58,127 bases of DNA, filler included, from Jimgerdemannia flammicorona (GCA_003990765.1; 2 parts of 2 records of this genome joined end to end with filler, not necessarily neighbours in it); one strand, 5' to 3'; shown: positions 21,951 to 57,499, counted from the whole stretch's first letter. Numbers and translations are program-made. Notes: generated by a model from the sequence alone, not told the origin.

Positions 21951-22624
21951 GCAGATCAACACTCTATATTTTGCGCTTCAGCGAAGTCTTCAACCTTTTA
22001 TCCTCAAAGTGTTCATTGTAGTATTCAGTTGTAAATTTATTTCAAAAATAGAGCTCTAAGTTGCTCAGTCGCCATGAGAACCCTATGACGACGCAGTTTA
22101 CTTAGCATCGGTTAAGATATTATTGTCCTGAGAAAAAGCGAAAAGCTGCGCACATTATCTGAGGGATTGATCAAATATTTCTTCCAACAAACGATATCGG
22201 CACACCGCGCAGGCCACCAAAAAAAGGAGCAATTGTGAATCGGTCATTTAAAAAAACACCATGTCGTGGTCGCACGCAAGTCAAATCTGGCAAACAAGGA
22301 TTTCGATAACCACCGAAGGACTCTTTTCGCGAACGATAGGGTCGAACCAACCAACCCACCAGGTCGGCCAAGGTCGCAAGGTCGCGCTCACCTCTTCACT
22401 AGTTTGCGAGAGAGCTTTTTGGGTGGCAAAGGAAGTGTGGACTGGCCGGCAGCGCCACATGTGTGCAAGTCAAGGAGGGCATGCTCCTGATCTCGGGGTT
22501 CGAAGCGATGCCGCTGTACTTTGCGGATAGCATGCGCGATGTATGGCTATGATGTCATTACATCATGCGGCGACTGTTGCGGATGTTGGGGCTGGCATCG
22601 AGCTTTCTCCAGTAACATTCGGGT

Positions 22625-25600
22625 TACACAAACTTCTGGCAACACTCAAGACATCGTTTTTGGAGAAAAGGTACTAGCATCATGGCAACTGATGAGCATT
22701 CTAAGGTATATGCTGGGCAGGATGGCCCTAGTGTATTCAACTGGCAGTATGTGGGGAGGAGTCATGGCTTGGGGGGAAGCATGCAGGGCTTGCTGACTGG
22801 GAGATATGGAAGAGGAGGAGACAGTACTGGGGGACAAGAGACTGGAAGGATGAGCTTTGCAGACAAGATGAAGGGGAGTCATCAGATGACTGGACTGGAG
22901 GGCTGGCTTAAGAAGGGTAAGGAGATGGTAAGGACTGCAGAGGTGGGTGGAGCAGCCCATGGTGGTGAGGGCAGCAGGGCTGGGGGAGTAGTAACTGAGA
23001 GGAGTAGGACTACTGATAGCAAGGGGACTGCTAATCTAGAAAAAAATCCAGATGTGATGGGGCTGATGGTAGATCTGGACAGGGGAGGGGGAGGGGCACA
23101 AGGTCTAGAGATCTGGCAGATGGTATAACAGACCTAGTGGTGGTATTATTACTTAAGAAATTAAAGTTAGAATTCACTATCACATTGTGTTTCCAAGACT
23201 TAGTGATAATAATGAGGATGATTCTGGGGCTTCTGGCTTAGAAGATGAAGAGAGTAGTTTCAGTAAAGTTCTTGAAGAGTCTGGAAGAGGTGGAGGTGGG
23301 CTTTGAGAAAAAGGATATACTATTGAAAGCAATGGAGAAAAGAGTGATGGTGGGGAGAATAGTGATCCCTATAGTCCAATGCTTATATTGAAATCCTTGA
23401 GTAGTATAGCTGATAATACTGGATATTCCTATAGTATTAAAGAAATTGACCAAGAAGTTGATTTTTAGGGCTATTAAGGAGTATGGAGAAATTATAGATA
23501 TTGAGTTTTGGATCTAGGAGAGTACTGAATTCAGAACTGGTAATATAGATGTCAGAGTATGGCTGGTGAATAAGAAGAATATAGAAAAGGTAAAGGAGAG
23601 ACTAGTGGTCCTCAAATAGGGACCTATGGAGTATAAGATCTCAAGGGTGAAAGAGATATTGAAGAAAGAAGAGGACTTGCTAGAGGTATTAGAGGATCTG
23701 GCTAGAGCCATAGAGAGGAGAAGATTGGTATGGAAGAAGTTTGAGACCAGAACAGTTGTAGAGATTATGAATGGCAAAAAGGTGTAACTAGACCAGACAG
23801 CCTGGAAGAGAGTATAGAAGAGATACATTTAGAAGAATCTGTTGGCCAAGTTGGGAGAGGGGGTGGCTGGGGAGACCACTACTGATAAAGCTAGATCAAA
23901 GATGAGTATCTGAGCAGAAGAGCAGAAAACAGCTCCAGAGAGAATTCCAGGAGGGGGAGAAGGCACAGGACTGAGCATTGTGGTAGAGGATGCAGAGATG
24001 GTAGAAGAAAAGAACCCTCAATATAGGGTACTAGATGGGGCTGAAGGAGATGATAAATTATAGAACATACTAGAGGAGGATTGAGATAAGTTAGTGAGGA
24101 GAAATGCAGAGAGTGGACAGGAGGAAGAAGAGAAGAAGGTGGTCCAAGAAGTAGCAGAGGCTGAGGTCAAGGAGAAATGATTGTAGAAAATACTTAAGAA
24201 TATAGTAGCTGAGGAGCTGGGGAGAGAGGACTTCCAGGTACTAAATAAGAGATATTGAAGTGAAATCCTACATAGCAAGAAGGTGCTAAGAAAACTCTGT
24301 GATGAGATAATAGTGGTATTACTAGAGGCCAAGATATATTAGATAAATGATGACAGAGAGGTAGCACTTCTGATAATTGTGGATAATAGGACTACATATA
24401 TGTGGGATCTGAGAAAAGGGCTAGCAAAGTAACAGGTAGTATATAAGGAGTATTAAATAGAGATGGAGACTGTAGATAGTATAGATTATCAGGAGATCTT
24501 AGAGGTGCTGGAGGCTTAGCAGGGAGAGATGGATGAACTAGAGACTGAGAGGAACTTCAATATTTCTGGGAATACAGTAAGCATAGAATTGTAGAGTGGA
24601 TTGCTGTTTTTCAAATAATATTATTCAATATGAACAATATAGCTAAAATATTATCTTTGAATATCAATAGGCTATGGGGAGCAGTGAAGTATCAAAATAT
24701 CTTTGGATAGTTAAAGGAGATGAAGGCAGATCTATTCCTACTATAGGATATTAGATATGATAGAGACTTGGATATTCTGAACTAGATGAAGGAATGGGGT
24801 AGTATGGCTATTTGATGAAGATATGTGGGCATTCTGGTTAGAAAGAGCAAGGAGATATTGGAGATATTGAATACTGGAGAAGCAGAGTAGTGTGGAGTAT
24901 TTGAAAGAGACCAGGTTAGAGGTCTTTGATAGTTGGATCTTGTTATTATCTAGCTGAAAGAGAGAGAGAGTAGAATGGATTTGAGAGCTATGAGAGTCTG
25001 GAGCATTGGTGGAGGCTGGTATTGATTGTCTAGGAGGGGACTTTAATATAGTATATAATAGAAAGATAGACAGAACTGATAGGAGAAGAGAGATGGTAGA
25101 AAAGAGTAGTGGTATGGAAACCTAGGAGGAAGTCAAATGTCTGAGCTCTTTAGTAGATACCAGGAGGCTTGGATGGAGGGATTATAGGGTTTTTACCCAC
25201 TGGGTAACAGGACTGATCTCAAGAATTGACTGAATGCTAACTACTAATTGCTGGGGAGTTGATATCTGGAGGACTTTGGAAACTGTTTAGTGTCTATAAT
25301 CAGATCACTGGAGTCTTCTAGGAGGGGGATTTTTTGGAAGAAGTGGGGAGAGATCTGAACATTGATGACTAAATATCTCTCTACTAAGAGAGGCCTCTCT
25401 ATGAGAGACATGGGTGGTGGATATTAGCTCTAGAGTTCTTAGTTGATGAGCAGAGTGGCTAGAGATTGGGAATCACTGGATAATATTAAAATCTGAGGCA
25501 CAATGGTACTGGGGAGAGGTAGGAAGAATGCAGGATACTTAGAGGAAAAAGCAAGTAAGGTGAGATGGGCCTTTCAGAGATTGGTAGAGTTGTTAGCAAC

Positions 25601-26616
25601 TTGGGTAGATCTACTAAAGGATAGCAAGAAAGGAGATTGATGAATACAGCAGATCAGGCTAGAGGTAGAGAAGCTGAAGGATATACTGAGGCAAGAAGAG
25701 GACCTACAGGTTAAAAGTATAGCAGCCTAACTGTGATAGCAGAGATTGGAGAAGGAGAAAAGACCAACTAAGTTTTTGTCATAGCTTCTGTAGATGAGGA
25801 GGGTAAGGTAGCAGTGGGAGGAGGTTTTGGATGAGGCTGGAGAGTTGGTTGTTGGGGTACTAGAGATTCTGGATCAGTTGAGCAGGTAGTGGGGACATTT
25901 ATAGAGTAAGGAGAATGGAGGAGTTAGGGTGATAAATATTGACAGGCATTTAGAGAATTGGCATCCTGATCTAGCAGTAGACTTAGGTGACCTTGATACT
26001 ACTATTTTAGGAGAAGAGATTTGGCAGGTTCTGACAATGACATGCTCTGGGACAGTACCAGAGAAGAATAGCTTATAGTAGAATTTTTGGAAGAAATAGC
26101 AGAAGTCAAGTTGATTCTAGAGGAAATAGTGATAATGTATAATAAAGTGATAGACTCAGGGGCATGAATTAGAGAACAGAGTTTGGGCCTTATGGCTCTG
26201 CTATTTAAGAATAAGAGGAGGAGAGAGAAGTAGAAGAACTGGAGGCTAATCATGCTTCTGGATATAGATCACAAACTGGTCATAAAGATCCTAGTGGCTA
26301 GGCTGCAGAGAGTGGCTCAATAGGTTCTGGGGACTGAGCAGAGAGAATTCATAGAGAGATATCTGATTAGAGATGAGATAGCCTGGGTGTATAGTGTCAT
26401 CAAGAGAGCCTACACTGCTGGAGTAGATGAATAGCTAGTTTCTTGGACCAAGAGAAGGCCTATGATAGAGTCTAGTGAGTGTAGTTGAAAGGAGTGCTAA
26501 AGCACATTAGGGTCCCTCCTGGAGTCCAACAGATCTTAATGGGTCTACTGAAAGAGAGTTAGACAGCAATTATAGTAAATGAGTACAGAAAGATTTCATT
26601 CTCTCTAGGCAGAAGA
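22625..26616 (+). mobile_element. Degenerate L1/Tx1-clade LINE: ORF1, APE endonuclease and N-terminal half of RT; 3'-truncated
   Basis: ORF2 starts at 24630 with MNNIAKILSLNINRL, then LGGDFN (~25030), SRID (~25220), SDH (~25300), NWRLIMLLDIDHK (~26237) and LDQEKAYDRV (~26443). It breaks off at the GVRQG position. Many TAG/TAA/TGA stops. The 5' boundary is approximate. Confidence 0.88.
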
Positions 26617-27740
26617 TGTACTATAATATCTTAACTAAGATAGATCTTCTCAAGTATTCTATTACTTAGAAATACTATTTTTGATTATTAATCTCTTATT
26701 GTTTTAGAAAACAGTAGCCATTCTTATTATAAATAAAGAAAAGAGTATACTTTTATATTGGTAAAGTAGTTCTTTTTTTAAATAGTATCTACTTATTCAC
26801 TAGGTCTCTTAATATTAAGAGTATAAATATATTAAACAAATTGAGAGAGATTTCATTTATAAAGATCATTAGACCAATTATATATTAATTAGTAGCACTG
26901 AATTTAATAGTATATATTCTCTTCTAAATTTTTATAAAAAATACTCATAAAGATTTTCTAAGATTTATCTTTATATTTATAATAGATTTCTGAATCTTGT
27001 AAATAGTTTCAGTTCCTGTATACTTTTTAATTAACTAGTAAAAAATGGTCTTATATTGATCTACATAGTATTTTATAATAGCTAGAGCATATCTTAGATC
27101 AAAGTTTAGATTATTTGATATTCTGATAAAGACTTTTTTGATATACTTTTTTAGCTAGACTTTAAAGATAATAATTTATCTTTTAGATAGTAAATTCTTC
27201 AGAGTTATAATTCCTTTAATAGTATTTTCCCTTAAATATCTTTTTGGATATTTTGTAAATATATATAGTAAAACTGTTATTTTATCATTATTATTTTCTG
27301 GTTTGTCTTTTAGTTTTATATTAGGTTTTATATTAGTCTCTATACTTATTTCAGTAGAACTATCTGAGATTATCAGATAGATATTAGATCTTTAGAGTAC
27401 TGGTATAATTCTTAGTATTTTTGAAAATACTGGACTTGGAAGAATTACTGATCTAGATAAGAGTAAAATAGATGAAACTTCTTGAGAAAATCAGATAATG
27501 TAATTTTTAAGTTCTTATACAAGTTTGTCAAAATTTTGAATAAGGTGATCAATGTTATCTAGCTGATCTGGTTGGATCATAATATGGCTACTACTTTATC
27601 TAATATATTAATAATATATAAACTTGATAATTAGAGAGTTTTATATAGTACTGACTTTCTTCTATAATTCTTCTGATAGTAGATAGTTGGTAAGTCTAAA
27701 GGTAATTACTTCTCTTTTTATTTAAATACTACTGAAAATT
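26617..27740. mobile_element. Heavily mutated AT-rich repeat remnant interrupting the LINE, family unassigned
   Basis: Abrupt composition switch at ~26617; TpA-rich, no CpG, no readable motif. Confidence 0.4.
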
Positions 27741-27744
27741 TATT

Positions 27745-28915
27745 CTTTTTTTTTTTATTTTATTTTATTTTATTTTTTTTTATAGTTACATAGACTTCTA
27801 CTTTATTACCAAACCATTTATAATATACTATTAATACAACTGTGCTCCTCACCTAATCTCACTTGGTAAAGCCCTCTCTCTCTCACCATTGCCCCAAAAT
27901 ACCACCAGTCCCCCTGCCACCCCAATCCTCTCCTACTCTTCCTATAGATTATCTCTACCAATTATCACCAATACTCCCCACCAGGGCCTCCACTTCTCTA
28001 CTATCTATTCAGCATATCTATCATTAGTCACTCTTATCTAATTACTCTCACTCTCAACTAACTGTCACTCCTCCTTAAATACAAAGAGCTAATATCCTGC
28101 CAGCCTGACCTAAATTGCCAACGCCTATCCTAGTATCAGCCACTCATCTCTCAACCCCCCCACCAGCCTTCTCTGGAGGTCACCTCACCTCTCTTCTACT
28201 GCTAACCCTGGTGATTGTACTCCCAGCTATGTACATCTCAATCTCTCTCCAAAAGTCCCTCATTACCTTATACTCCTCCAGCTAATGTTCAGAAGTCTGT
28301 ATCACTCCTTCCTCCTGCCTGATATTCAAACACTCTACTCCAAGATATCTCCTTCCACCAAGTGATCTATCTGATAGTTCAATAATATTATACTGTAAAA
28401 CTCTTCACTATACTACTCAGAACTTTGGGGGGATCTATCTAGCTGCCTGCTTGCCCCACTACTAGATACTATTCCACTCTTACTCCTTGCCAATTCCCAC
28501 CCCCTGCCATGCCTTGGGCCACAGATCTCTCCCATGCTCCTGAAGGTACTCCATGTTATCCTTTAAGTAGAAATCATCCACTAGTACTCTGCCTAATAGA
28601 AGGTAGTTCTACCTCCACATCTGGGATCCTCATTCCTCCTCCCTCTCATCACCCCTCTATCAGAGACCAATATAATATGCCCTATCAGCCACTCTCTACT
28701 AAAATTCCCTATACTGTATCCTCTGACTCCCCTCTAAAGCCACTAGAGAGAGAAGATCTCTAGTCACATCTCTAGGGGAATCAGGCCTCTCATACCCTCT
28801 GCATAAGTGGAATTTACTCTCTGCCCCTCAACTCACTTGCTCACTTCAACCACTATACCTGCAAGCAGTGAAGACACTTGGGAAAATCCACTAGATCTAG
28901 GCCTCCTTGATCTAC
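27745..28915 (-). mobile_element. 3' end of an L1/Tx1-like LINE with AATAAA and A-rich tail
   Basis: The T-rich tract 27745-27781 is a poly(A) tail on the minus strand, with AATAAA at 27807-27802. Zinc-knuckle region is homologous to 300-440. Confidence 0.72.
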
Positions 28916-28973
28916 TTTTTTTTTTTTTTTTTTTTTTTACCTTTGTTTTTCAATCTTTTTTCCAGGGCTTTCT

Positions 28974-29016
<43 letters not shown>

Positions 29017-29116
29017 NNNNNNNNNNNNNNNNNNNNNNNNNNNNNNNNNNNNNNNNNNNNTTAATTAATTAANNNNNNNNNNNNNNNNNNNNNNNNNNNN
29101 NNNNNNNNNNNNNNNN
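29017..29116. other. Artificial assembly linker: N44-TTAATTAATTAA-N44
   Basis: Exactly 100 nt and symmetric; the 12-mer places stops in all six frames. Confidence 0.95.
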
Positions 29117-30394
29117 TTTAAAAAAAAAAAAAAAAAAAGTAAATACTGATAAGAAAATATGGGCTCAGGCTCTAGGTGAAAGCAAGTGGGACATACTTAG
29201 GAATGTTGTCAGAGTTTTGGAAGTAAGTGGTGATTACTCTGGCTCTACACTTGTTTTGTCAGCCTCTATACTCATTTTGTCCATCTCTGCACAATACAAT
29301 ATCTCACCACATATAACTGCCAGTGTTTCAATGATTGTATAAAGGATATAGTCTAACAAACGACTGTGATAATAAGCTTGGCAATACCAGTATACAACCT
29401 TCTGATTGACTGAATAGAGGACAAGCTCAAGGATAGGCTGGAGGATTGTGGTGATTTATGGTTGAGTCCGGATCAGAGAGATACTATAGAGATTGTTCTT
29501 AGTAAGCACAGAAAGTACTACTCCCTAACAGATACCACCACCACCATATACTCAATCAGTATAGGTATGTTGATGTTGATGTCAGCATGTGGCCATTGCT
29601 CCTTCTAAAACAGAGAAACCCCTGCAAAAACTCACTTTCTCCTCTCCTTCAAATAGTGCTGGACCCATGCTTAAAGCTACAATACCATAAAGATCAGGGC
29701 TAGGAGCAGCACTTCATTGAGAGAACCAAGCAGGCCATAATTGAAGTGAACCAGAAAAACTACATGCCACCACAAGGTTCTGGCTAAAGTAGATGAATAT
29801 GCTGAAAGATCTCTCCAGTCCCACATTTACTTTAGCAGAAAGAGGAAGAGAGAGCCATCAGTGGAAGAGCTACTATCAATAGATGAACTTACAATTTACC
29901 TCACCAGTGACCATGTGATCCTGCTAGAGAGTGTAGAGATACTCAACTGGTGGAAGGTGGATTGTCAGGTGGGTATTAGACCAATTTAACCCACCAATCT
30001 AATCACTGCTCTACCTACTGTTCTACCCATCAGAGCATGCAGCTGTGTCAAACAGACTTCCCAAGTCTGTGTGGTATGGCTCAGGACTACCTGGCGATTC
30101 CTGCCTCCAGTGCTCCCATCGAGCAGGTGTTCTCAGATGGGGTAGACCTCATTGCCCCAAAGAGGTGTGCACTGAATGCTTAGACAAACTGGGTGTGTAT
30201 GTGTCTGAAGTCTTGGTGGGGCTTGGGCTGCTAAAATTCAGTGGGTTCTGAGAGTTCGCAGATAAGTTGGTAGGCCTTGTAGAATATTTAATACCTTTCA
30301 AAAATAATAAAACGGCAAAAAACCCTGAGGACTCAGCCTGGAGTTTGCAGTCCAAGTGGGCAGCAGTTGGCAGGATTAGTAGTGGCAGTGGAGG

Positions 30395-30970
30395 GAGCAT
30401 GCAATGTTTGTGGCCCTCTGCCAGTAGCAAGGGGCAGCCCCAAGCTGTCAGTGCTCAGATTGGTGGGCAGGTTGGCAGAGAGAGCATGCAAAATTTATTT
30501 CCCTCTGCTGGCAACAAGGGGCAGCTCCAAGCTGCAAGTGTCCCAGTTGGGGGGGTTGGCAATGAGAGGCAGCCTCAAGCTAACAGTGTCTGGGTCAGTG
30601 GGCAGGGTTGGTTGGCAGAGTTGGTGGGCATGGGGTCAGCAGAGGGAGTGCACAAATTTTGCAGCCCTCTGCCAGCAGCAAGGGGCAGCCCCAAGCCACA
30701 AGTGTCTGGGATGAGTGGGACAGGTGGAGGGAGTACACAAAATTTGCAGCCCTTTACTAGCAGTGAGAGGCAGCCACAAGCTGTCAGTGCCTAGGTCAGT
30801 GGGCAGGGTTGGTAGGCATGGGGTCAGTTAGAGCGGGTACAAAATTTGCAGCCCTCTGCTGGTAGTAAGGGGCAGCCCCAAGCCACAAGTATCTGGAATG
30901 GGCAGGGCAGGCAGAGGGAGTGTGCAAAATTTGTGGCCCTCTGCCAGTGGCGTAGGGGCAGCCCTAAGCT
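30395..30970 (+). repeat. Internal hAT array: 7 units with a ~45-bp core and alternating linkers
   Basis: Core CAAAATTTGYRGCCCTCTGCYRGYAGYAAGGGGCAGCCCCAAGC; period ~85-105 bp; unit 3 is partly deleted. Confidence 0.85.
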
Positions 30971-31339
30971 AGGGACAGAGAGTGCTTCTGGTAGTCGGAG
31001 AGTACTTCTGGTAGTTGGAGGACATTTCTGGTAGTTGAAGTCTACTACAGATTCAGACCCTATCACCAGTTCGGGTCTCACAGGCACCCTGGCCCTATGC
31101 CCAGTGCCACACTGGTGGCACTGCAGAGCAGGGCCAAGGGGCTGGTAGGGCCCTATACAATGGCTAAGCTAGGACTACAGAAGAGATGCCTGGCCCAACC
31201 CCCCATATAAGACTACCTAACCTATACAAAATGACTTTCCAATCCTCATAAAAAACAGCCTATCCCTCATGAAAGGTTGCCTAACCCTCACAAAAACTAC
31301 TCTACCTGCTGGTCTCAGGCCTTGTTGAGCCTATCGAGT

Positions 31340-32060
31340 GCAATGACTATTGTGTCCAAGCTCTTCTCAAAGGTGATGGTACCATAGTAGTTATGTGGTT
31401 GGAAGAGGATGACCATGTTGGCTACAAATGGGACCCCGAAACTTTAGGTGAGGTTATACCAGACTCTGCCACTATCCTCTCAGGTTAGGCCCTTCCTTTT
31501 CAGGATGTAAAACATTACTGGAGTGATATTGTTATCTGTGTGGGTAGGCAGAGAAAGGTTGCGCCCAACATATCCTGATGTGATATGAGTGTATAGTTGG
31601 GTGAACCCTTGGCTCAGGACCTTATACTGCCAGACTGTGCTAGTGAATGCCTGCCCTTGGTCCAGCCCCAGGAGCCCTGGCTTGGAAACCTACCAAAATG
31701 AACAGCAACCAGTCAGTCCTTTTTGCATCTGGGGGGGCAGAAACCCCATGGGCCACAGAAACCCCCCAGGTCACAGAAATCCCTCAGACTGCAGCACTCC
31801 AAAAAAGAGGAGCTCCTCACCTCATATGGCATGCTAAATTGCACCAAGAATTCACATATAGCTGCACTAAGATCACCACCAAGCTGGCCTGCCATATGCT
31901 CTACCAATCTGCTCAAAGAACCCCAGATTATAGCTGCTATCACTGTACAGGCCATATTGTACTCATGAGCAGTTTGCTCTTTGATGGCACTTCTAAAGTT
32001 CTGGTAGGAGTACAGAATCTTATGCATCTCTAAAAAAGAGTATGTTGATGAAGAGTGATT
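31340..32060 (+). pseudogene. hAT cargo gene Y remnant (unknown function), same strand as the transposase; second copy at ~35610-36330 (-)
   Basis: YCVQALLKGDGTIVVMWLEEDDHVGYKWDPETL, then a GTGAG donor, then a long frame (DVKHYWSDIVICVG...LLKEPQIIAAI) broken by stops of the C-to-T type. Confidence 0.45.
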
Positions 32061-34423: not shown

Positions 34424-35466
34424 ATGATTGTTAAAAGAGAGAGTATTTGAGGTGGAAATGCACTCTCTGCTGACAATGTTAGATTTTTTCTCATATGGGC
34501 AGCACACAAGCTGCTCATCGAGAGCCAAAGAGGTGACAGCAGTGGCGATGGCAGGGATGAGGGTGAATTTCGGCAACAACTCATAGTGGCCCTTCAGATC
34601 TCAGAATTCACAGACCTCACAGCTATGTACATAGCAGCCTTTTTGGAGCAGATGGTAGTAAATGTAGGTTGCTCTTTTCTGCTGCTACTTTTGTTTAAAT
34701 TTCCCCAGTATGACCTGATTTACCTCATACTCTTCTTAGGGTCCATAGCTCTATGGCAAGATCTGGCAACTTTATTCACAATATCCAGTCAAGATGAAGA
34801 AAGGTTGGTGGAAATTGTGGGGCATACCTTTGGTAGCTGAGCTATTGAGTCAATGTATCACATGGTGGAGGTCTCAAAAGGAACAGAAGCAAGCCTTTGT
34901 GAGCAATCTTGTGCAACTCATCAGCATGCAACTCGTCGGCATACAGCTCACTCACTCACTCACTCATGCTCTTTTTCTGAAATACCCATCTTCATGTTTT
35001 ATTTAAATTCATTTTTTATATAGTCTCCCCCTAAAAAACACCCACACCCACATGCAACATACCTGCACATAACTTGTCCACATGTAACCCATCTGCATGC
35101 AACCCATCTGCATGTACACTTATCTTGGTCCCTTAGATCAGGGCTCAGTTCTATTAGAAAGGAGAGTTCAAAGTTACCCAAGTTCAACCATGTCTAGCAT
35201 CTGATCAAATAGAGAAATTTGAGGACAAGATGTTCAGCATGAGCAGTACCAGCATTGTCATCAAGGCTTGGGGGTCTATATTCAAATCAGAGCCAATCAT
35301 TCTCGACCAAGGGATCCATTGGCCAGCAGGAGTAACCAATGATGAAGAGAACCATATCTTTATTAACAAATGTAGAGAGGTGGTTGCAATGGTGGTAAGG
35401 AACCTCTATGGCAATGAGCTTCACTGCTACATTAACGGGATTTACAATGACTGTGTCAAATACTGA
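34424..35466 (+). pseudogene. hAT cargo gene X remnant (unknown function), antisense to the transposase; second copy at ~32190-33270 (-)
   Basis: Three exon-like blocks (MIVKRESI*GGNALSADNVRFFLIWAAHKLL...; GSIALWQDLATLF...; ...IVIKAWGSIFKSEPIILDQGIHWPAGV...NDCVKY) separated by GT..CTTAG intron-like segments; present in both copies. Confidence 0.5.
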
Positions 35467-40030: not shown

Positions 40031-40074
40031 GTATGTGTGTATTGTATTGTAGATATATCTGGTATATAAGTCAT

Positions 40075-44520: not shown

Positions 44521-44532
44521 TCACTGCTACCA
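44521..44532 (-). other. Primer-binding site of gypsy A
   Basis: TGGTAGCAGTGA on the minus strand between the LTR-like sequence and the gag start (44445). Confidence 0.6.
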
Positions 44533-44881: not shown

Positions 44882-45340
44882 TGTGATAGCTGATCCGAAT
44901 TAGTAACATGAAACAGGAGAATTGGACATTTGATTACAGTACCTGAATCTGATTCCCAATATAGCTTAGCCTCATAAAAATAGCAGCCACATTCTGCAAA
45001 GTATAGAAACTTTAATGTTTATAAAGATTTAAGAGATGTTAGAATCTTCATGATCAGTAAAATCTTAGCAGATGTTAAAGATTCAATACTTGCGAAATAG
45101 CCACTTATAGTTAGCGAAACTTGTATAAATAACCCAGTATCTTAGAGTGAATAAACCTCAGATCGAAATAGTTCAAAAGTAAAGAGATAGCAAAGGAACT
45201 AGTAAGTCTGTGGGCAGATATACTTCATACTCACCCACCCTCTGCTGCAACTCAAGAGACTCTGTGAGAGTCAGAACAGTCAAGTTTTTAAGATACAGAA
45301 ATCTGACATACTTTCAAGAGTAAGTGTCTGCTACATTACA
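44882..45340 (+). repeat. 5' LTR of element B
   Basis: Direct repeat of 48383-48855. Confidence 0.92.
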
Positions 45341-45396
45341 ACTTAGTGATTATTGGCTGGTGATTCAAGATGAATCCCTCACTTTCAAGCTGAACA

Positions 45397-47890
45397 ATGA
45401 ACAACCACCACTACCCAAGCAACTATCCAAACCAAGCCACATACCCAGACAAAAAGGATATGAGACTACCAGTATTCCATGAGTATACCTCAGATGAATC
45501 AATCATTACCTTCATTGATAATTTCGAGCAGTATACTGCTGTAAGGACCCTTACAGTAGTACAGCAAGTAGCCCTCATGCCCTTCAGCCTATGAGATCCT
45601 GCCAGAGCAGCATTCACAGCCACAACCCATACAGGAAATGATGCTGATACTATACTGACAGTATAGAAAACCTAGCTCCAAAATACATATTATACAGATG
45701 AGATCAAGCAAGCTCTGAAGGATCAGCTTAACATAATATACCAAGAAATGAGTGAGGATCCAAACACATTCTATACCAGAATTCAATATTAGATAATCCT
45801 TATAGATTATGCTGCTGCTATCTGAGATCAAGTAGCTAAAGTAACCTTCATCAAAGGAGTTCATCCAGAGATAGCCATGGCCATTTATTCATCACCAGTA
45901 GTCTTAGATCTGCCACAGAAGGTCACCTATGCTCAGCGATATTGGACAGCCAGACACCCACAAGACCATACAATAGAAAGAGTCACAGGAGTCAGAATCG
46001 AAACACCCAAGGCAACCAGTGTGATCCCTACTACAATGATCAATCAAAACACACCTCAGCCAAAAACTACAGAGCAGCAAAAGAATGGTGATCTTATGGA
46101 AGAACTTGCCAAAAGGTTCACTGAAATGACCACCCACCTAGGAGATGTGGTAAAAGAAATCCAAGGAAGAAACTATCACCCAGTTCAGAAGTTCATCGCC
46201 ACCTCAGACAAGAAGAAAGATACCTACTATATCTGCAGAGAAGAAGACCACTACTTCTATGAATGTATGAGTGAAACCAAGTACAAGGACAACCAAGCAA
46301 TACTATATGAAATAAGGAGCAGGCCAATATAATTATCTTCAAAGAAATTGGAGATTCTGATGAAGAAGAATAGGAGGCCTATCTTACTCAGACTACTAAG
46401 AAGGATGTTCGCAAGGAATCCTACAAGAGACCACCAGGAAGACCCAAGAAGAACCCAGTAGAAAAGTAGATGGAAATAGCCACTGAAAGCCAAGCCAAAG
46501 AGATGGACCAAGATATGGAGCTGGAGCAAGCAGTTCAAGATATTATCTGAGGAACTACCCCAGAAGCAAAGGAGAAAAAGAAAAGAAACTTCACAAGACC
46601 AACACTTTTAAGTACGATAACTTCAAAGACCTTAGCCAACAAAAGGTCAATGCAACCTTTGGTCAGCTCACAGAAATCCCAACATTCAGATAGCAAATGA
46701 GATATGGACTTGCTGAAACAACCAAGGAACAAGGATGGAAGATAACCAAGGCCAATAATGTTCAAGAAGACTCAGGGGAAGAAAGTGAAGATAATCGCAA
46801 AACCTCTGCCTATACAACATGCCAGATCAAGGATAGAATCTTTGAAGCCATCATCGATACTGGAGCAGGAGGATGTCTTCTCAATAAGAAGGCAGCAGAC
46901 TGCCTAGGCCAGGAGGTTGAAGAAGCAACCAAGTTGGTGTTTGTCACAGCAGTTAGTATAAGTACCACCCCTCTAGGAAAGATCCAAGATGTCCCCATCA
47001 AGATTGGAGGAACAACCATCCCAGTAGATGTAATTGTAACCAATGCCACCAACTATGACATCCTCATCAGCAATCAATGGCTTCACAAAGTCAGGGCAAT
47101 AATCAATCTCCATGTCCAGAAGATGCAAATCACCTACCAGGGACAGAAGAATCGAATTCCCATCAATGTCAATAAAGAAGTCTTGCCTAATATTGAGGAA
47201 GAAGAGAGCAAGCAAGAGGAAGCTTATATGGTGACTACTCTGAAGAAGAAAGTTGGACAGATGAGTGAAGAAGAATGGTGTAAGAAGATTGTAGAAGGCT
47301 ATATACCACAAGGAGTCTGTTCTCATGGGATCAAGATGTACTATATGGCACATGTCAATGATTGCTACCAGTGCACCATCAGAATCAAGAAAATTCACCA
47401 GAAAAGAAGACAGAAAGCTCTTGAAAAACAGGTCAGAGAAAAGAAGGAGGAGGAAGATGATGAACCACCAGTCCTCAGATTACAAAGTACCCACTTTACC
47501 TCTTGAGAAATACTGTTCGGAGAAGAAAGTTCTCAAGAAACCCTATCATCCAATAGGGATGCTGTATGGAAACATATGGATGGAGAAATATGGAGACTAT
47601 ACCAAATCAGAAAGAAGGCTAAGGATTACATAACAAAGACAAAGATACTATAATGGAAGAATGTGAAAAAAACCCACAAACTCCTGGAGATTATCAAGAT
47701 AGGAGACAAATTCCTGATATATTGGAATATGGTAGAAGCCTCATGATCACAAAAACTGGAGCCTAAGTGGAAAGGACCTTACCTTGTACAAGATATAAAA
47801 GGAACCACCTTTTGGCTATAAAAACTCTCAGGTACAATCATCCCTACTACTATCTACCGAAACCAACTCAAGAAGTATTATGACTAGTCA
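45397..47890 (+). pseudogene. gag - aspartic protease - integrase C-terminal remnant of element B
   Basis: LPVFHE...FIDNFEQY gag start, zinc knuckle, AIIDTGAGGCLL...YDILISNQW, then LEPKWKGPYLV...NQLKKY. Confidence 0.85.
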
Positions 47891-48341
47891 ATGAAGTAAT
47901 ACTGCTGCCCTCAGAATTACTAGTGCAGCCCAGTGAGCTATTGAAAGACAGTAGTATTCCACCGAGTCACCAATAATAGAAGAATCCTTTGACAGTATCC
48001 AGAGTATAGTGCAAACACACTTGTCATGAATCTCACATTTCAAGACCTACCAGAACTGAACTGAGTTCCAGAAATACTTCAAGTTGGAACAGCTACTGAA
48101 TTCAACACCAAAGATGGGAAAAGAAGACTGGATCAGAGAATGTCAGCTCTCCTACACTCAGATCACAATTGCAAAAAGAGTGTACAAGTTATTCAAAGTC
48201 AATGAGTCAGCCTTAGCCCATTTCTAAGGAGTAACCCCAGGAGACTTTGGATATATCAAGAGACAATATTGGAAGGACATAATGTCACAAATTGCATAGT
48301 ATAAGGAAATACACATTGTAGAAGCCTGGGAATTCGAGTGA
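47880..48341 (+). pseudogene. Extra 3' ORF (ORF3) of element B, ~153 codons, unknown function
   Basis: ATG at 47880 overlaps the integrase end. Single frame without indels; the internal stops are all TGA/TAG/TAA, restorable to CGA/CAG/CAA. Core: FQKYFKLEQLL...TIAKRVYKLFKVNESALAHF*GVTPGDFGYIKRQYW. Confidence 0.6.
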
Positions 48342-48382
48342 ATAGGATGCTTCTGAGATGAATCACCTATTCAGGAGGAAGA

Positions 48383-48855
48383 TGTGATAGCTGATCCAAA
48401 TTAGTTACATAAAACAGGAAAATTTGACATTTGATCATGATATCTGAATCCAATTCCCAATATAGCTTAGTATTATAAAAATAATAGCCATATTCTGCAA
48501 AGCACAGAAACTTTAATGTTTACAAAGATTTAGAAGATGTTAGAATCTTCACAATCAGCAAAATCTTAATAGATGTTAAAAGATTCAAAACTTGCAAAAT
48601 GAGCCATTACTTAGCTACCTTATAGTTAGCCAAACTTATATAAATAACTCAGTATCTTAGAGTGAATAAACCTCAGATTGAAATAGTTCAAAAGCAAAGA
48701 GATAGCAAAGGAACTAGTAAGCCTGCAGGCAGATATACTTCGATCTCACCCACCCTCCACTGCAACTCAAGAGACTCTGTGAGAGTCAGAACAGTCAAGT
48801 TTTCAAGATACAGAAATCTGATGTACTTTCAAGAGTAAGCATCCACTATGTTACA
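48383..48855 (+). repeat. 3' LTR of element B
   Basis: Direct repeat of 44882-45340, preceded by the PPT. Confidence 0.92.
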
Positions 48856-51538
48856 GTATGTAGAAGGTAGTGGAACATAATAGAATATTCAAGAAATTTC
48901 AAGAAAAGACTAACTAAAAAGATATGAAAATATACTAATATAAAATATAGTTGTGAAATTATTATAAATAATTTTAACAATTTAATTCTCTAGTAGTTTT
49001 AGACTTATTATAATATATAATCTATATTTAATAATATTGAATATTAGATATTATTAAAATTATAAATATAATTTAGAAAGTTATAGAAGTTAAAATTAAA
49101 ATATCTGTAATAATTAGTTCTTTTTTACAACTTTAGTTAATTAAAACAAATCTTAACTTAAGACTATAAAGTAATAAAAGAACAGTAATTCTATTGAAAA
49201 ACCTTATTTAAAAGTATACTACAATAACTATATATTTAAAAAGTATTATGAAATTTATATTAGAGATTATAGCTCAGTTTAATATTTATTACTAACTCAG
49301 ATAAGAAAAGTAATATCTGCTATACATATTTATATAGAAAATATTACTACTATTATAAATACACCAATTAAGTAATATTATTAAGAAAATTAGACACTAT
49401 GATAAAAAGTAGGAATGAGAAATCTAATTTATTAAGATTTAAGAAGAATATTTATAAAAAATCTTATAAAAGATCCCTAAAAAGAACTTAGAGATATTTA
49501 TTTAAAATCTTACAGAAGAATAATTAATGTAGTTATAAAAAGTAAATATATATCTAAAGAAATAAATTAAACTATAGAGTCCAAATAAATAAGTAGCTAA
49601 AGATATTATTTAAAAATTCTACTTTAACTAGTAAAGAAGTTAAAATAAAAAGATATTCAAATATAACATCTTTAAGTAGTATATATTTAGAATTAATTAA
49701 ATTAAATTAAATTAAATATATTATTAATTCAATTTAATTCAAAATATTTAAATTAAATAAAGAATAAATTCTATCTAAAGTTCAATTTAAATCTAAATTT
49801 TCCAAAATTCATTAATATAATAAAAAATATAATTTTATTTTATTAGATAAAACAATAATCGTTAATATAGTAAAGAAGATTAAATTTGATATAATTTAAA
49901 TTACATAATTTAATTTATTAATAAATACTATTTTAAAAATAATATCTATAAATATTTCAGATCAAAAAAAAAAAAAATCAATATAATTCTTAAACAATTG
50001 ATTGAAATCGCTAGCTTAAAATAAAAAATAAAATTAGACTAATCTAAATTATTAAATACCAAGACTGAGAGATATATAGTAGAAGTCAATAATATTCAAA
50101 AAGAATTTAATAAAGAGAAAAAAGATAAAAAAGCAATTATTGATATAAAAGCTAAGAATATCTTCTTAGTAAGAAAGAGGTGAACTGAGTAGATTGAAAA
50201 ATTGAAAAATTTTAAAAATTGATATTTTTTATAATAAATAGTACTAGTAATCTATATTGGAGAAAAATCTGAAATATATATTTCTATTAAATTTAGAGAA
50301 GAAATTATCTCTATAGATATAGTTATAAGAGTTTGAGTTGGACTTTATATTATATATAATATATTAGTATAATAAATAATATGGCTATCAGAGATTTAAA
50401 AAGCAAAAAAAGATCAATAAAATATATAACTAGCTAGAAAGAAATCAAATAAAGTGAATATAGTAACTATCCTAGAATAGAGCTAAATAAATTATAAAAG
50501 AACAGATTGATAACTTAATATCAACTACTTAATATAAAATAAATAATTTAATATATAGTCTTAACAATAAGAGAACAAACTGAGGTAAAAAAAAAATAAA
50601 ATAAAAATTAAAAAATATATAATTTTAAATTACTAAAGTATTTCCATAATTTAGTAAAAAAAAGGTCTACTATAAGATAGCTATTAAAATTATATATATA
50701 TTGATATATATATTGTAGAATAATTTATAAAAAGTATAAATAAGATAAGTATATAGCTTATTTGGCTACTTATTATTAAAAAAATAGTTTAATTATTCAA
50801 AACTAGAATTTTCTTTAAAAGTAAAATATGTACTATCATAAAGACTATATATATATATATATAACTAGAGTAGAACTGATTACTATAGAAGTCATTATAA
50901 GATTGATTAAATAGCAATAATATATATTAGATAAGTATAAATCCTATAAGCTTGAATAAAAAGAAAAGAATATAGTAAACTCTATATAATTATAAGTAGC
51001 TATAAGATATAATATATTGAATTAATATCTGAAAATAAAAGCCAATTTCAATAATAGTTAATTCTGAAGAAAGGACTAAAGAAGTAGAGTAAGTAAAAAT
51101 TATATATTTAAAAATCAAGATTTTAGTATAAATTAAGAAATTCAATTAAGAAAAACTGATCAATAATAGACTTAGAAGATATATAATAAAATACTCAATA
51201 AGAGAGGTAATAAAATTATTATTTAACTTATTACCCTAGTTTAGATAAGTTTAAAATATATAGTAGAGATTAAAAGTCTAAAAATTATACTATTAAATCA
51301 TAGATTAATAAAAAAAAAAAAAAAAAACTAATAGTCTATTCAAAGACTAACTTAGAATACTTTAATATCTAAACTAAAAATATTAGAAAATATAAAGTCT
51401 AAAAAGAAAAAGATTATATTTTAAATTAAAATCTAATAAAAGTATTTATAATAACAAGAATAATAAGTAGTGATTAGAGAAGACTATATATAAGTATAGT
51501 AGAATTTAAGAATTTTACATTAGCTATATACTACAATA

Positions 51539-51575
51539 TAGGGTTAGGGGTTAGGGTTAGGGTTAGGGTTTGGGT
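51539..51575 (+). repeat. Interstitial telomere-like (TTAGGG)n tract, 5-6 units
   Basis: TAGGGTTAGGGGTTAGGGTTAGGGTTAGGGTTTGGGT. Confidence 0.85.
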
Positions 51576-52899
51576 CATGATTAGGCCTCAATAAATTATT
51601 TGTTCATTATAAAGAATGAAAGATATATTGGTGTAAAAAATGAGAAGCTACTAATATGAGAAATGAAAATCAGTAAAAAATATTTTAGATATATACTATT
51701 AATAAAAATAATTAATAATATATACTATTTTAATAATATAAAAAGCAAAAATGACCAGCTGGTAAATTATTTTAACCTAGCTATAAGGAAAATAAATTTG
51801 TAAAGTAAAAGTAAAAGAAACTAATTAGTATATTATTTATTTACTAAAGACTAATTATATATATAATTATTAATAACTAAATACTAAGTAACTAATATAA
51901 ATAAATAATTTAATATATTATTAATAATAAGAGAACTAACCAAAGTGGACAAGAAGAGAGAAGAAAAGGAAAAAAATATCCAATTATATAATATCTAAGT
52001 AACTTTATAATTTTGATTAGACAAAACCCAACTATAAAATAACTACTAGAATTATATATAGTATTGATTGTATGATAGGCTGTCTTATAAATAAAATAAA
52101 GAGAGTATGCATAAATTTCCTCCTACTGTTCTTCATTAGTATATCAGTTAAGTTTATAACTAAAGAAAACAGAAATGAACTTTTAAAAAGACTATATCTA
52201 TAAAGACAGGAGTGATATTGGTCCAAAAATAGTTATAATGTGAGGTAAGTATAGAATATATAGACTGAGAGAGAAGAAAAGAATATGGTCTACCTCTTGT
52301 GATACAAATTACTATATAGTATTATATATTAAAAAAATATCTGAAAAGAGAAGACCTTTTTCTACAATAGTTAATTCTGAAGAGAGGTCTAGAGAAAGGA
52401 GTAGAGTAGATAAGTAAAGATAAAGATCTCTGTACTAGTTAAGGAAGTTAAGCCAGAAGATCTAATTCTGAAACTTATTAATAATAGAACCCAGAGAATA
52501 TATAATAAAGTACTTACTAAAAGAGCCAATGAGGTTATTGTCAGACTTGTAATACTAATTCAAATAGGCTTAAAATATACAACAAAGGTTCAATATATAT
52601 AGAAAATGGAAAAAAGGCTGAGAATTAAACCATAAGTAAGGGTCTACTGGAGAACTTAATTATCTAAGTAATAGTATATATCATTAAAGACCTTCTTAAG
52701 ATATTTTTATATCTAAAGCCCTATAGTAGTAGCTAAATTAAAAGTATGAAGGAGGAGAAGACTATATTCTAGCTAAGATCTAATGAATGTTCTTATAATA
52801 ACCAATTTAACTATAGCAACTAGAGGAGATCTTAGATATAGCAAAAGTAAGATATTAGCTATATTCTATAATGTAAGATTAATAAAATTAAACTCTTTA

Positions 52900-54420
52900 T
52901 TAGTATATAGTATACCTAGATATATATAAGAGCAGAGTTATAGATATAGCTATCCCCCCAATAAGTATAGTATAGTTAGCTAGATTAATATTATCATACT
53001 TCTTAGAATTGAGCTCTATACTATTTATCTTGAGATACTTTATATATATGAAAGTCAACTATTCTTTAACTCTTAGTAGTAGTTTAAGAAGTAAGATTGA
53101 TATTAACTATAAAGAATAAGCTAAGAGAAAAGTTATACTTTTTAAACCAGTCATTTAAGGAAATGGCAAGAAGATTAATAAAGATAATAAAGAGTTAAGG
53201 AGAAAGAATTGAGTTCTAGATAGAGGAGTGACAAGACTATTAATAATTATCTAATAAGAATATAATTAAATAGACTTTATATAATATTAAAGAGGGCTGT
53301 ATTTATTTAAAAATCACCATCTCTAATAATATTCAGATTACACAGCTCTCTGATAATACTCATAATATAGTTTTGGAGAAATTATATTAGTAATATAGTG
53401 AGCGACAAGTATTCTGAGATATATATTGAGCAGGAGAGCCTAAGTACATTCAACTGGCAATATGTTAGAAGGGGCCCTGGCTTGGGAGAAAGCATGAGTA
53501 GAATACTAGTGGAAGAATGCAGAAGAAGAGAAAGTAGTAATAGAGGATAGGAGATTGGAAGGATAAGCTTTGTAGATATAGTGAAGGGGAGATAGCCAAT
53601 AACTAGATTGGAGGGTTGACTGAGGAGGGACAAAGGGGTGGCAAAGATGACAATGCAGTAGCTACAGAGAGGAGTCTCTCTGGAGAGCCAAAGTAGTGGG
53701 ACCAGTAGTATAGTAGTTAAGAGAATGGCTGCTAATAGTATTATACAGATATATAATCTAAAAAAAAAAACTAGATAAGACTGCTGATGGTAGACTGAGT
53801 TATAGGAGTATATAAGGCCTAATAACCTAACTGATGGTATAATAGGCCTAGTAGTAGTCCTATTACTCAAGAAGTCAATTTCAGAGTTTGTGATTATCTT
53901 GTGCTTCTGAGACTTAGTAGTGATAGTGAAAATGATCTTAGGGCTGATTGCTAAGCAGATGAATAGTATAGTATCTATTAAGTTTCTGAGGGATCTAAAA
54001 GAGATAGAAATGAGCTTTAAGGAGACAGAACTATTAGAAAGTATGCTGAAGGCTATATTGACTATTGGAGAGATATGTGTTTTAATAAAACATTGCTTAA
54101 GGTGAGATCCCAGAGTGATATAGCTTCTGGTGAAAGGGGTTTGACTATAGTAGAGATGAGAAGGAGAGTTAAAGAAGTTATAGCCAGTATGGCAAGGTAG
54201 TTGATATAGAGTTCATGGTCTGAGACAGGACCTCATTCTAGATAGAGAATATTGATATCTGGATTTAGTTGATAAAGAGAGAGACTGTTAGTAAGTCTCA
54301 TAATTAGTCCTTAGTGATAGTATGAGGAGTCTTTATAGACAAAGTGATGAGAGTAAAGAGAAGTGAGAAGGAGGAAGAGAACCTTTTAGAGATACTAGTT
54401 GAGTGATATAGTAGTATTAT
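52900..54420 (-). mobile_element. Possible LINE ORF1/endonuclease remnant
   Basis: Strong purine strand skew; LTYCQLNVLRL...FLQN resembles the start of an APE domain. Confidence 0.35.
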
Positions 54421-56264
54421 CTACTATCTGCTAGCTGATAGGCTATAAATTCTAACCCAGACTATATTGGTACTCTATATTCTCACTAATGTTAAAGTTT
54501 AATAGTTAGGAGCTACTCAGTAATAGTCTGTTCCACTATCATATTGATGAACCCCAGTATATCTCTCTTTTATCTTCTTATCAGTATAGGCTAATATAAA
54601 GAGCTCTATCTATCAATCTCTACTAAAATCTCTTAGACTGTAGATATTTACTATCATCTGGTCCAACTATTGATAACAAATCACCTGAGGATCCTCTGGA
54701 GGAGAACCTCAATTTTCAGATCCTCTATATTAGTAGTAACTACTCACTACCCTACAGCTCAACAGCTCTCTTAAGCCACTAAGTTTAAGATAGTATAATC
54801 TCTTCTAGAAGTCCACCAGACCCAGACCTCTCCTCTCTACAGATATCACTAAGCTATCTATCTCTGCTTTCTAGTCCAGATCTAGTCTTTAGCTATCTTT
54901 AATAATCTTTTTATTACTTAAGCTAGAAAGTATAAGTAATATATCAGATACTATAACTTTGACAACTGGTAAATATTAAGAATTATCATATATCTTACTA
55001 AAGAGATATGTATAGTATTCTCTTTAGCTCCAAAGGATCTCTCTTCAGATAACTACCTTTCTCTCCCACTAGGTCTTTGGCAAAACTGACCCATATATTA
55101 ATAAGAAGATATCCAGATAGTACACTATTTCTTCTGCTGAAATAATAGTCTCAATGATGTCTTCTTATTATCTTTTATATTAATCAGTTATATATTAGTA
55201 ATCAGACTGTTTTAATAGATTTTCATTAGTATAAATATCTTTAACTATATATTTATACATATATATATATATATATATCTCAGTAAACTATAATAATAAA
55301 AGTAGTCTAGAGACTGATTATATTAATAACTACTTTAATTATTATAACTTATTAAGAAATAGAATATAAGTAATATTTATTCAATTATATATTATATATA
55401 TATTATAATAATTATATTATATAAATAATCTATATATATAATATAAATCATTTTATTTATATAACTTAACTCAAGTTCAGAATTAAGTTTAGAGTCATAT
55501 TTAGGAGTTAGGTTTAGAGTTGAATAAACAGTAAATAATAAGTTATATTAATGATAGATTATATATTTTTTTAAGTCAGAATAAAGATAGATTATAATTT
55601 TTTTCAAGTTAAATTAAAGATAGGTAATTATTTAAGATTAGTTTTTTTTCCAGATTGAGTTTTGAGTTCATCAGGTCTAGTTTTAGAGTACTAATTATAG
55701 TTTTTTGTAAACTTAAGTTGTTTAATATTTACTATTTATTTCTAACTAGTTCTAACTAGTTTAGTATTATTACTAGACTTAAACTGCTTATAAAGAATCT
55801 CTTTGAATATTGCTCAATCTTAAGAGATATTATAATATAATTATATTACTAGATAACTATATTTTTTAGAGAAGTATAGTAGTAAATTAGACTTATATAT
55901 CTGTTTTTATTCTTAGAAGCTCCAAATAATAATCTAATAAAAGATTCATATATATATCAGTAGATAGCCTTTCTTAGTAACTATTGATAGTATTTAATTT
56001 GAGTAACTTAAAACTGCAAGATATTATTATAAAATGAGCCATTTTAGTTATATAGTTTATTTTTAATTATTCTAGTGATATTTATAGATTTTAGATCAGA
56101 TATACTATTATAGTAATTATTTCTTTAGAATGATCCATATTTTTAGATTTATCTCATTTATTATAAAGAGGTCCAAATAATTGACTAGTTTTCAAAACTA
56201 GTTATAACTGATTTTTGAATTTAATAAAGTTTTCTAATAAGTTAAGATATAACTTCACTACTTT

Positions 56265-56665
56265 TACGAACTAGTTTCTTTAAGAGAAAGTAAATAAATT
56301 GAAAAGTTCTAGTAAATCTAAAGTAGCTTTAAGAGATACTTAAAGATTTGAATTTCTAGAAAAAATAAGCTAAGCTTTATTTAAGTAGAAAAAGAGAATA
56401 TTTATATAAACTATAAAAGAAAGATCTAGATTGATTTTAGAAATAAAAAAATAGTCAAGAAATCTGTTTTTGGTAAAAATAACTAATAGAATTCTATAAT
56501 ATTTTAAAAAATTCTATAACTAACTAAGATACTTAGTATAAAGAAAGAATAGAAATTTTTAATATTAAGAATGTATTTTAAAGCATTTGAAAAAATTAAA
56601 ATATTATAGATTATTTAAGAAAAGATAGAAAAAGACTAGAGAAAAGATTTAAAAATATATTATAA
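56265..56665 (-). repeat. More heavily mutated LTR related to the gypsy A LTR
   Basis: Shares CTAAAGTAGCTT.AAGAGATACTTAAAG, AAAGAAAGATCTAGA and TTCTAT.ACTA.CTAAGATA with 44590-44815. Confidence 0.7.
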
Positions 56666-57499
56666 CTAAGATATAACCAAAAAATTATTACAATTAAGAA
56701 GAAAAATAAGAAAAGATAAGAAATATAATTTTAGAAAAGAGATAAATACTTTTAATAAATTTTGCAGATATATAAAAAAGAAAATTTCAACTAGATAATT
56801 TACTTAAAACATATTTCCAAAAAAAAAAACAAAAAATAATTTAAGAAATAATTATTATAAATAAAAAAAAAATTAGAATTATGTAATTTAATCTTAATTA
56901 AATTATATAATAATAATCTATAAATTTAATTTTTTTAATGAATAATTATTTTAAAATTTATACAGTATTATAAAATTATACAGTATTTTTATTTTAAGAA
57001 CTATGACTAGTAGTCAAAATTTGATCTAATTTTATAAAAGTCTCTCTTTTAAAACTATAGAGAGACATCAAAACAAATTAATAAAAATTCTGAATTAATA
57101 ATATTATAATAAATCAATCAATAAACATATCACAAAAACCATTTTTTAATATATATATTTTTTTCATTGTATTCTATGCTTTTAAAGTTCACTGAAGGTT
57201 ATGCTTGGCTGAGTTGGGGTATGCTGCGGCTGAAGTGTTCAAGGTGTTTGGAACGTCGTTTTCTGCCGTCTAATCGTTCGGGAGGTAATAGCCGGTCACG
57301 TGATCTCGGTACGTCGAATTGTTTGGGTAATACTTAATTATATCTACCCAAGTGGCAACATCGAGTCAAGCAAAAAAACACAGAAGATACAAATTACACA
57401 CAACACTATATCATAAAACATTTACTTATTATTATAGCTGAGTGATGTACACAAAAAAGAAAGCTAAATGACAATGTGCGCCAGCCTAACACACCATCC

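Follow-up and report, generated by a model that had tools for sequence, protein, structure and literature searches.

What has removed nearly every CpG dinucleotide from a block of dead transposons in Jimgerdemannia flammicorona, a mycorrhizal fungus of an early-diverging lineage, and left the adjoining genes with theirs? We addressed this question in one window, a stretch of 58,127 nucleotides (filler included) from assembly GCA_003990765.1 that consists of parts of two records joined end to end with filler; all positions are counted from its first letter. Positions 22656-57226 (34.6 kb) are a dead transposon nest that contains a long interspersed nuclear element (LINE), two hAT copies, and several Gypsy relics. 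The content of the nest was established from Pfam matches and self-comparison, based on 137 stop-to-stop open reading frames (ORFs), four of which had matches, plus short read-through pieces. This nest has decayed through a slow, site-by-site, two-strand C-to-T process that is confined to transposon DNA and follows the order CpG >> CpA ~ CpC >> CpT. We describe the footprint of this process, its direction and accumulation with age, and the mechanisms that could have produced it.

CpG depletion ends at the transposon edges

Across positions 941-22600, the window contains 1222 CpGs where 1176 are expected, an observed/expected (o/e) ratio of 1.04, compared with 81 where 1114 are expected (o/e, 0.07) across the nest. 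Both borders are steps. When counted in 150-bp bins, CpGs drop from 10 to 0 at 22655/22656 and rise from 0 to 12 at 57226/57227, and at this resolution the depletion does not spill beyond either border. The final CpG on the left side lies at 22655, with the following one only at 28122; on the right side, an isolated CpG at 56267 is followed by CpGs again from 57227. On the left, repeat homology begins at 22606, no more than 50 bases from the border, and the CpGs at 22620 and 22655 persist within the first 50 bases of the LINE relic. CpGs step up a third time, from 0 to 8, at 940/941; the stop codon of an ORF with a BTB domain is 20 bases away, and the CpG-poor DNA to the left of the step is probably the edge of a further decayed block. 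The depletion is confined to transposons, and both the genes and their intergenic DNA retain CpG.

An initial annotation of this window, made without knowledge of its origin, had pointed out the CpG contrast and its sharp borders, which it placed correctly except for an error of a few bases; the changes do end at transposon edges, as it had proposed. It had also supposed a Mucoromycota-like host and referred to a prolyl oligopeptidase sequence. The gene is present beside the nest as a Peptidase_S9 match, and the host supposition is borne out by the BTB ORF at 920-3253, which is 100% identical over 38% of the query to BC938DRAFT_480770, a hypothetical protein of J. flammicorona (Endogonales, Mucoromycota); all seven of its matches belong to the same species.

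Context hierarchy of the mutations

The main data set for the mutation spectrum is an inverted pair of hAT copies of ~4.5 kb each, 29151-33632 and 34073-38588. Their alignment of 4599 columns holds 3743 matches, 584 transitions, 72 transversions, and 20 gap runs, for a transition/transversion ratio of 8.1. Reciprocal CA/TG dinucleotide pairs, as left when a CpG becomes TpG in one copy and CpA in its sister through independent changes on opposite strands, number 98 versus only 5 for the AC/GT controls, and just three CpGs are kept in both copies. We calculated divergence for each context as changed sites over all sites at which the adjacent base is unchanged. The resulting values are 0.83 for CpG (30/36), 0.26 for CpA (183/697), 0.21 for CpC (103/498), and 0.04 for CpT (25/576). 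A second, much smaller comparison, between the two long terminal repeat (LTR)-like repeats of another element in the nest, gives 4/4, 14/54, 3/15, and 4/69 for the same four contexts. The decay hierarchy is CpG >> CpA ~ CpC >> CpT, and the underlying rates would stand at very roughly 100:7:5:1, a rough estimate of our own that is sensitive to saturation.

In the hAT pair, preference is set by the 3' neighbor and not by the 5' neighbor. The effect of the latter is small, save for TCA (0.13) versus ACA (0.37) and GCA (0.33), and the bases ahead of CpG give TCG 9/13, GCG 3/5, ACG 6/6, and CCG 8/8. A plant CMT3-like preference for CHG (where H is A, C, or T) was considered and rejected, with divergences of 0.22 for CAG, 0.18 for CAA, 0.37 for CAT, and 0.04 for CTG.

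The hAT ancestor would have carried ~230 CpGs at the time of duplication (o/e, ~0.8). We rejected intrinsically CpG-poor transposons based on this estimate, from which it follows that the element was CpG-normal on arrival and lost its CpGs in place, separately in each copy. Loss of CpA is likewise a process of its own: the 183 CpA/TpA differences have an unchanged neighbor and stand beside the 196 transitions of the 98 reciprocal pairs, so they are not accounted for by former CpG sites.

The base composition of the nest reflects the same order. In the younger zones at 29 to 41 kb, CpG has been lost and CpA not yet, with (CpA+TpG)/(ApC+GpT) at 1.29 to 1.87 and a TpA o/e of 0.74, near the gene value of 0.68. 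At 49 to 57 kb, TpA/ApT reaches 1.13 to 1.32 and (CpA+TpG)/(ApC+GpT) falls to 0.58 to 0.99 (1.13 to 1.23 and 0.58 to 0.74, respectively, within 48901-52700). The two most decayed zones, ~48.9 to 52.7 kb and 55.0 to 57.2 kb, have a GC content of 14 to 19% and retain only faint Gypsy and LINE relics. Across 48901-57226, the o/e of CTAG is 3.12 versus 0.43 in the gene zone, and that of TpA is 1.16 versus 0.68. The fraction C/(C+T) before A declines from 0.57 in genes to 0.10 to 0.12 in the 19%-GC zones, where 66% of the surviving cytosines are in CpT, versus 24% in the gene zone.

The initial annotation had reported only transitions and no indels between 33541-33632 and the reverse complement of 34073-34164, and these 92 bp indeed contain 12 transitions, no transversions, and no indels; both reciprocal CA/TG pairs that it quoted are present, at 33545 and 33556. 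The 4.5-kb inverted duplicate extends well beyond this stretch, which forms just its inner end. The collapse of the worst-hit elements into TpA- and CTAG-rich DNA, which the annotation had also described, is borne out by the values above, and so is a loss of CpA beyond former CpG sites, on which its reading depended. Its order of mutation, CpG first and CpA later, stands as far as it goes, and its simple two-step form does not: CpC is lost almost as rapidly as CpA, with CpT spared.

Direction, strand distribution, and accumulation with age

Three polarity tests agree that the changes run from C to T, by ~3:1, as had been assumed at the outset. Outgroup units of the hAT tandem arrays assign 29 differences to C>T/G>A and 10 to T>C/A>G, with 57 ambiguous and 10 without an outgroup. 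The LINE ORF2 relic, which contains 58 stops in 651 codons, was compared with eight homologues; these were the matches among 1.84 billion representatives, and all are fragments of 83 to 259 residues. Over 414 unique codons, GC>AT-type replacements number 78 versus 24 in the reverse direction, and 20 of the 25 unique stops covered by a homologue lie opposite tryptophan (11), arginine (6), or glutamine (3). The routes to stop codons listed in the initial annotation are therefore real, and the largest class is TGG>TAG/TGA. In unequal repeat pairs, T is found on the AT-richer copy in 79 v 31, 37 v 6, and 25 v 6 cases; for example, of the 110 context-classified transitions in the LINE 5' pair, 79 have their T in the 53320-54021 copy. 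Because the outgroups themselves are likely decayed, these ratios would be weakened rather than inflated. The hAT transposase relic, used as a protein query, had no match at an E value of ≤0.001 among 7999 candidates, and codon-level polarity was dropped for the hAT pair because the relic shifts frame repeatedly.

Both strands and both copies are affected. Mismatches in the hAT pair comprise 274 C/T and 310 G/A differences, and the changes per strand amount to 150 to 168 in copy A and 124 to 142 in copy B. Compared with permutations, the 311 non-CpG hAT transitions do not cluster by strand or copy (P values of 0.15 to 0.77; 83 neighbors on the same copy and strand versus 79.1 ± 7.7 expected), with the caveat that many superimposed rounds could blur polarized tracts.

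The transition load climbs with transversion divergence across six repeat pairs. Pairs at 0.016 to 0.020 transversions per site have divergences of 0.26 at CpA and 0.04 to 0.06 at CpT, and pairs at 0.05 to 0.13 transversions per site have reached 0.60 to 0.95 at CpA, 0.49 to 1.0 at CpC, and 0.33 to 0.55 at CpT, a proportionality that is loose and for which the older pairs are short. Pairs that retain only 65% identity are still asymmetric in their decay.

Proposed methylation-linked decay and competing explanations

Judged from the sequence, we hold with slightly better than even confidence that the nest records chronic deamination of methylated transposons, at CG plus CA and CC, and not repeat-induced point mutation (RIP) of the RID type. 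Methylation of cytosines would be restricted to transposon DNA, strong at CpG, weaker at CpA and CpC, and nearly absent at CpT; the combination of a DNMT1-type and a DIM-2-type enzyme would produce this pattern. Methylated C would then become T by deamination, either spontaneous or enzyme-helped, which would strike individual sites on both strands throughout the time that a copy stays in place. CpG sites would be erased first, CpA and CpC ~15 to 20 times more slowly, and old copies would end at 14 to 19% GC, rich in TpA and CTAG, with their surviving cytosines mostly in CpT. If the mark stays within the transposon edge, flanking genes would retain normal CpG.

We infer 5-methylcytosine (5mC) as the cause, and these enzymes as its writers, with two published parallels in mind. 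Dim2-dependent transposon 5mC in Zymoseptoria tritici is reported to favor CG over CA and CA over CC and to be nearly absent from CT, and Dim2 to promote C>T changes at CA in mitosis (PMC8016269); the order CG > CA > CC >> CT in the footprint and in the residual composition of the nest matches this preference. Phycomyces, also a member of the Mucoromycota, is described as encoding both DIM2 and DNMT1 and as having repeat-restricted 5mC in CG and CHH contexts (PMC11258239). Taken together, the match in order and the presence of such enzymes with repeat 5mC in Phycomyces lead us to favor transposon-targeted methylation followed by deamination. The comparison with Z. tritici extends to the confinement to transposons and to the chronic, non-meiotic character of the process, and it differs in that mutations there fall at CA and not CG, CpG is erased first here, and our host is a member of the Mucoromycota.

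Several observations weigh against methylation-linked decay. By our rough estimate, CpG is lost at ~100 times the CpT background, which could mean that an active step is involved. An excess of that size is greater than that of passive deamination in mammals. The ratio of CpA decay to transversions varies from ~9 to 57 across the age series, so the scaling is loose, and the numbers are small. The Dim2-linked mutations of Z. tritici occur at CA and not at CG (PMC8016269), whereas CpG is the most decayed context in the nest. According to a 2026 review, Neurospora DIM-2 prefers CpT (PMC13297926), and a DIM-2-type enzyme alone does not therefore predict the sparing of CpT. Members of the Mucoromycota are also described as mostly low in 5mC (PMC11258239). 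A related possibility, which we consider unlikely, is a RID-independent, methylation-coupled mutator of the Endogonales that would actively convert C to T in heterochromatic transposons during vegetative growth, a "mitotic RIP" through a DIM-2-type enzyme. If this were true, the DIM-2 branch of RIP would predate the Dikarya, and RID-dependent RIP would be a later ascomycete refinement.

Canonical RIP depends on RID, with a DIM-2/heterochromatin branch; single rounds are marked by strand-polarized tracts, in Neurospora the mutations leak into flanking DNA, and RIP ceases to recognize repeats at identities far above those of the older pairs described here. Like RIP in Neurospora and other Pezizomycotina, the decay in the nest consists of two-strand C-to-T changes in transposons (584 transitions versus 72 transversions, ~3:1 toward T), converts glutamine, arginine, and tryptophan codons into stops, and ends in an AT- and TpA-rich state. 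Its most decayed zones satisfy both classical RIP indices (TpA/ApT of >0.89 and (CpA+TpG)/(ApC+GpT) of <1.03). Values beyond both thresholds occur at 49 to 57 kb and also at 27 to 28 kb, and the second index misses its threshold at 29 to 41 kb. A true RIP-like defense, in which homology sensing of duplicated DNA, perhaps premeiotic in the zygospore, triggers active deamination of both copies in a non-Neurospora context, would also account for why mutated DNA in the window derives exclusively from transposons, why every repeat pair found is affected, and why CpG loss is so fast relative to background by our rough estimate. In the same direction, repeats of at least 5 kb in the genome are reported to number 274 above 95% identity versus 51642 at 80 to 95% (PMC12543289). 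We nevertheless think this explanation improbable. CpG is the first target and not CpA (0.83 versus 0.26), CpC is hit as strongly as CpA, CpT is spared, tracts polarized by strand or copy are absent among the 311 sites, decay persists at 65% identity in pairs that are still asymmetric, nothing leaks beyond the step-like borders, the load increases with transversions and hence with age, and the host lies outside the Ascomycota. Apart from the arbuscular fungi, Mucoromycota are reported to have lost RID (PMC8298701, citing Bewick 2019) and, in the same source, DNMT5, and a published k-mer screen scores the species "no_rip" (PMC12543289). The RIP-like reading put forward in the initial annotation holds in that the changes are C-to-T and transposon-bound; the transversion-linked load, the absence of clustering, and the lack of border leakage lean against RIP bursts and fit slow methylation-type decay better. 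Classical RIP may have contributed, with its CpA preference, polarized tracts, flank leakage, and younger-zone indices absent or only partly seen.

Methylation restricted to CpG, written by a DNMT1-type enzyme, could have erased CpG by itself, the remainder being AT-biased neutral decay with a natural context bias. CpG decay does dominate, TpA o/e is gene-like at 29 to 41 kb, and the transition/transversion ratios of the old pairs are just 1.4 to 2.7. The transposons of Rhizophagus irregularis are reported to be highly CG methylated (PMC8647823), and CpG depletion attributed to 5mC there and in Basidiomycota (with DNMT1-RFD and DNMT5) resembles the nest in its transposon-only change of CpG to TpG and CpA, with genes spared (PMC8647823, PMC13297926). 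The reciprocal CA/TG pairs are the signature of such depletion. The nest differs in its second layer, a loss of CpA and CpC at 5 to 6 times the CpT background within one 4.5-kb alignment, with which the LTR-like pair agrees, and which continues down to 14 to 19% GC. This layer is not predicted by CpG-only methylation, the transition/transversion ratio of the hAT pair is 8.1 overall, and the CpG-normal zone at 9.3 to 22.6 kb has a single Pfam match yet is without AT drift (GC, 0.39 to 0.51). We rate this explanation as quite doubtful. Members of the Pucciniomycotina (Microbotryum and relatives) show TpCpG hypermutation of transposons, which is similar as a CpG-centered C-to-T process outside the Ascomycota. 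Unlike in that system, a 5' T is not preferred ahead of the mutated CpG in the hAT pair, and CpA and CpC are also affected. We find it very improbable that a cytidine deaminase of the AID/APOBEC type edited retroelement cDNA or heterochromatic DNA. Such an enzyme would produce massive C-to-T change with a context preference; however, the most clear-cut data are those of a DNA transposon mutated after insertion, the two strands are about equally affected, and the preference is set by the 3' neighbor, whereas that of APOBEC enzymes is set by the 5' neighbor.

Relation to published surveys

In published surveys of fungal genomes, RIP-like mutation is confined to the Ascomycota. RIP-like signatures are described as restricted to ascomycetes by Badet and Croll (2025), and J. 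flammicorona is listed there with 23 k-mers enriched in noncoding DNA, 0 in repeats, and the status "no_rip" (PMC12543289). Dallaire (2021), citing Venice (2020), states that RIP signatures were undetected in Mucoromycotina (PMC8647823). The test applied by Badet and Croll compares repeats with all noncoding DNA on scaffolds over 50 kb, and the same source gives the J. flammicorona genome as 231 Mb with 73% repeats and an N50 of 10.9 kb (PMC12543289). With nearly all noncoding DNA being repeat, such a comparison would be blind to transposon decay and probably has little power in this genome. Our literature search found no paper on such decay, RIP, or methylation in the Endogonales, and neither Jimgerdemannia nor Endogone is mentioned in the text or the 10 searched supplements of an eLife survey of DNA methyltransferases (PMC10538959).

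The process in the nest is a variant of known methylation-linked transposon decay and not a new kind of system. The window contributes a large sister-copy data set of 584 transitions, a clustering test, and an age series, set beside a published "no_rip" score. Read directly, sister copies reveal that transposons in a Mucoromycota genome have undergone strong C-to-T decay that is context specific. Should methylation prove to be the cause, early-diverging fungi would be using non-CG cytosine methylation with a Dim2-like preference. This would bear on how a huge transposon load is tolerated and would make the origin of RIP testable.

Organization of the nest and its flanks

The features of the window are collected in Table 1. 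The hAT copies sit within a Gypsy RNase H fragment in a tail-to-tail arrangement, separated by 440 bases, and may derive from two insertions or from one inverted duplication. Each has a noncoding tail of ~3.4 kb past the transposase that includes a GC-rich tandem array with a period of ~94/187. The N runs at 29017-29116 obscure the 5' part of copy A.

Table 1 Features of the 58,127-nucleotide window of J. flammicorona
Feature	Position	Strand	Details
CpG-poor block	1..940		3 CpG; CpG o/e 0.17 in 1-1000
Host gene, BTB domain	920..3253	-	PF00651, E 2e-15
Sacsin-domain gene(s), CpG-normal	3148..9644	-	PF25794, E 7.9e-88, 5.5e-23, 4.3e-12; CpG o/e 0.94-1.17
LINE-like relic	22606..26630	+	5' part 22606-23307 homologous to 53320-54021; ORF2 relic 24657-26630
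CpG-void domain (transposon nest)	22656..57226		81 CpG vs 1114 expected; step borders on both sides
Assembly gap	29017..29116		Two 44-N runs with 12 bases between; directly left of hAT copy A
hAT copy A, 3' part	29151..33632	+	Dimer_Tnp_hAT in ORF 29980-30180; long noncoding tail; tandem array ~30364-30970
Spacer between hAT tails	33633..34072		440 bp; entered by Gypsy RNase H fragment
Gypsy RNase H fragment, ORF	33930..34109	-	PF17919, E 5e-10
hAT copy B	34073..40141 (approximate end)	-	34073-38588 aligns to copy A; transposase remains in shifting frames; Dimer_Tnp_hAT 37533-37709; tandem array, period 187, 36734-37345
Gypsy relic	42712..43957	-	Capsid-like part 43754-43957 (PF19259, 24.4 bits, below the Pfam cut-off of 29.1); dUTPase 43284-43454 (PF00692, E 5.5e-5); aspartyl protease 42712-43056 (PF08284, E 8.6e-7)
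Element with direct LTR-like repeats	44882..48855	+	Repeats 44882-45340 and 48383-48855, 86% identical
Most decayed zone	48901..52700		GC 19%; internal pair 50506-51260 vs 51869-52579
Second LINE 5' copy, more decayed	53320..54021	+	65% identity to 22606-23307
Second most-decayed zone	55001..57226		GC 19%; relics of Gypsy 44083-44833 at 55823-56015 and 56197-56548
Prolyl oligopeptidase-family gene, 3' part	57913..58104	-	PF00326 (Peptidase_S9), E 4.5e-9; CpG-normal; adjoins nest

The dUTPase domain of the Gypsy relic sits between the capsid-like part and the protease. The LTR-like repeats of the neighboring element flank only ~3 kb, within a CpG-void region, and a 270-codon protease ORF is still open between them at 46694-47503; this element may be internally deleted.

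In the CpG-normal zone across 9300-22600, the lone Pfam match among ORFs of at least 80 codons is a sacsin N terminus at 9306-9644, and the long ORFs at 17734-18723 and 19869-20621 had no Pfam family match. A protein-atlas comparison of the sacsin ORF returned sacsin clusters only and was uninformative on taxonomy. The BTB and sacsin-domain ORFs of 920-9644 have six non-self paralogues in the same species at 63 to 87% identity, three of them with a sacsin domain, and look like members of an expanded family.

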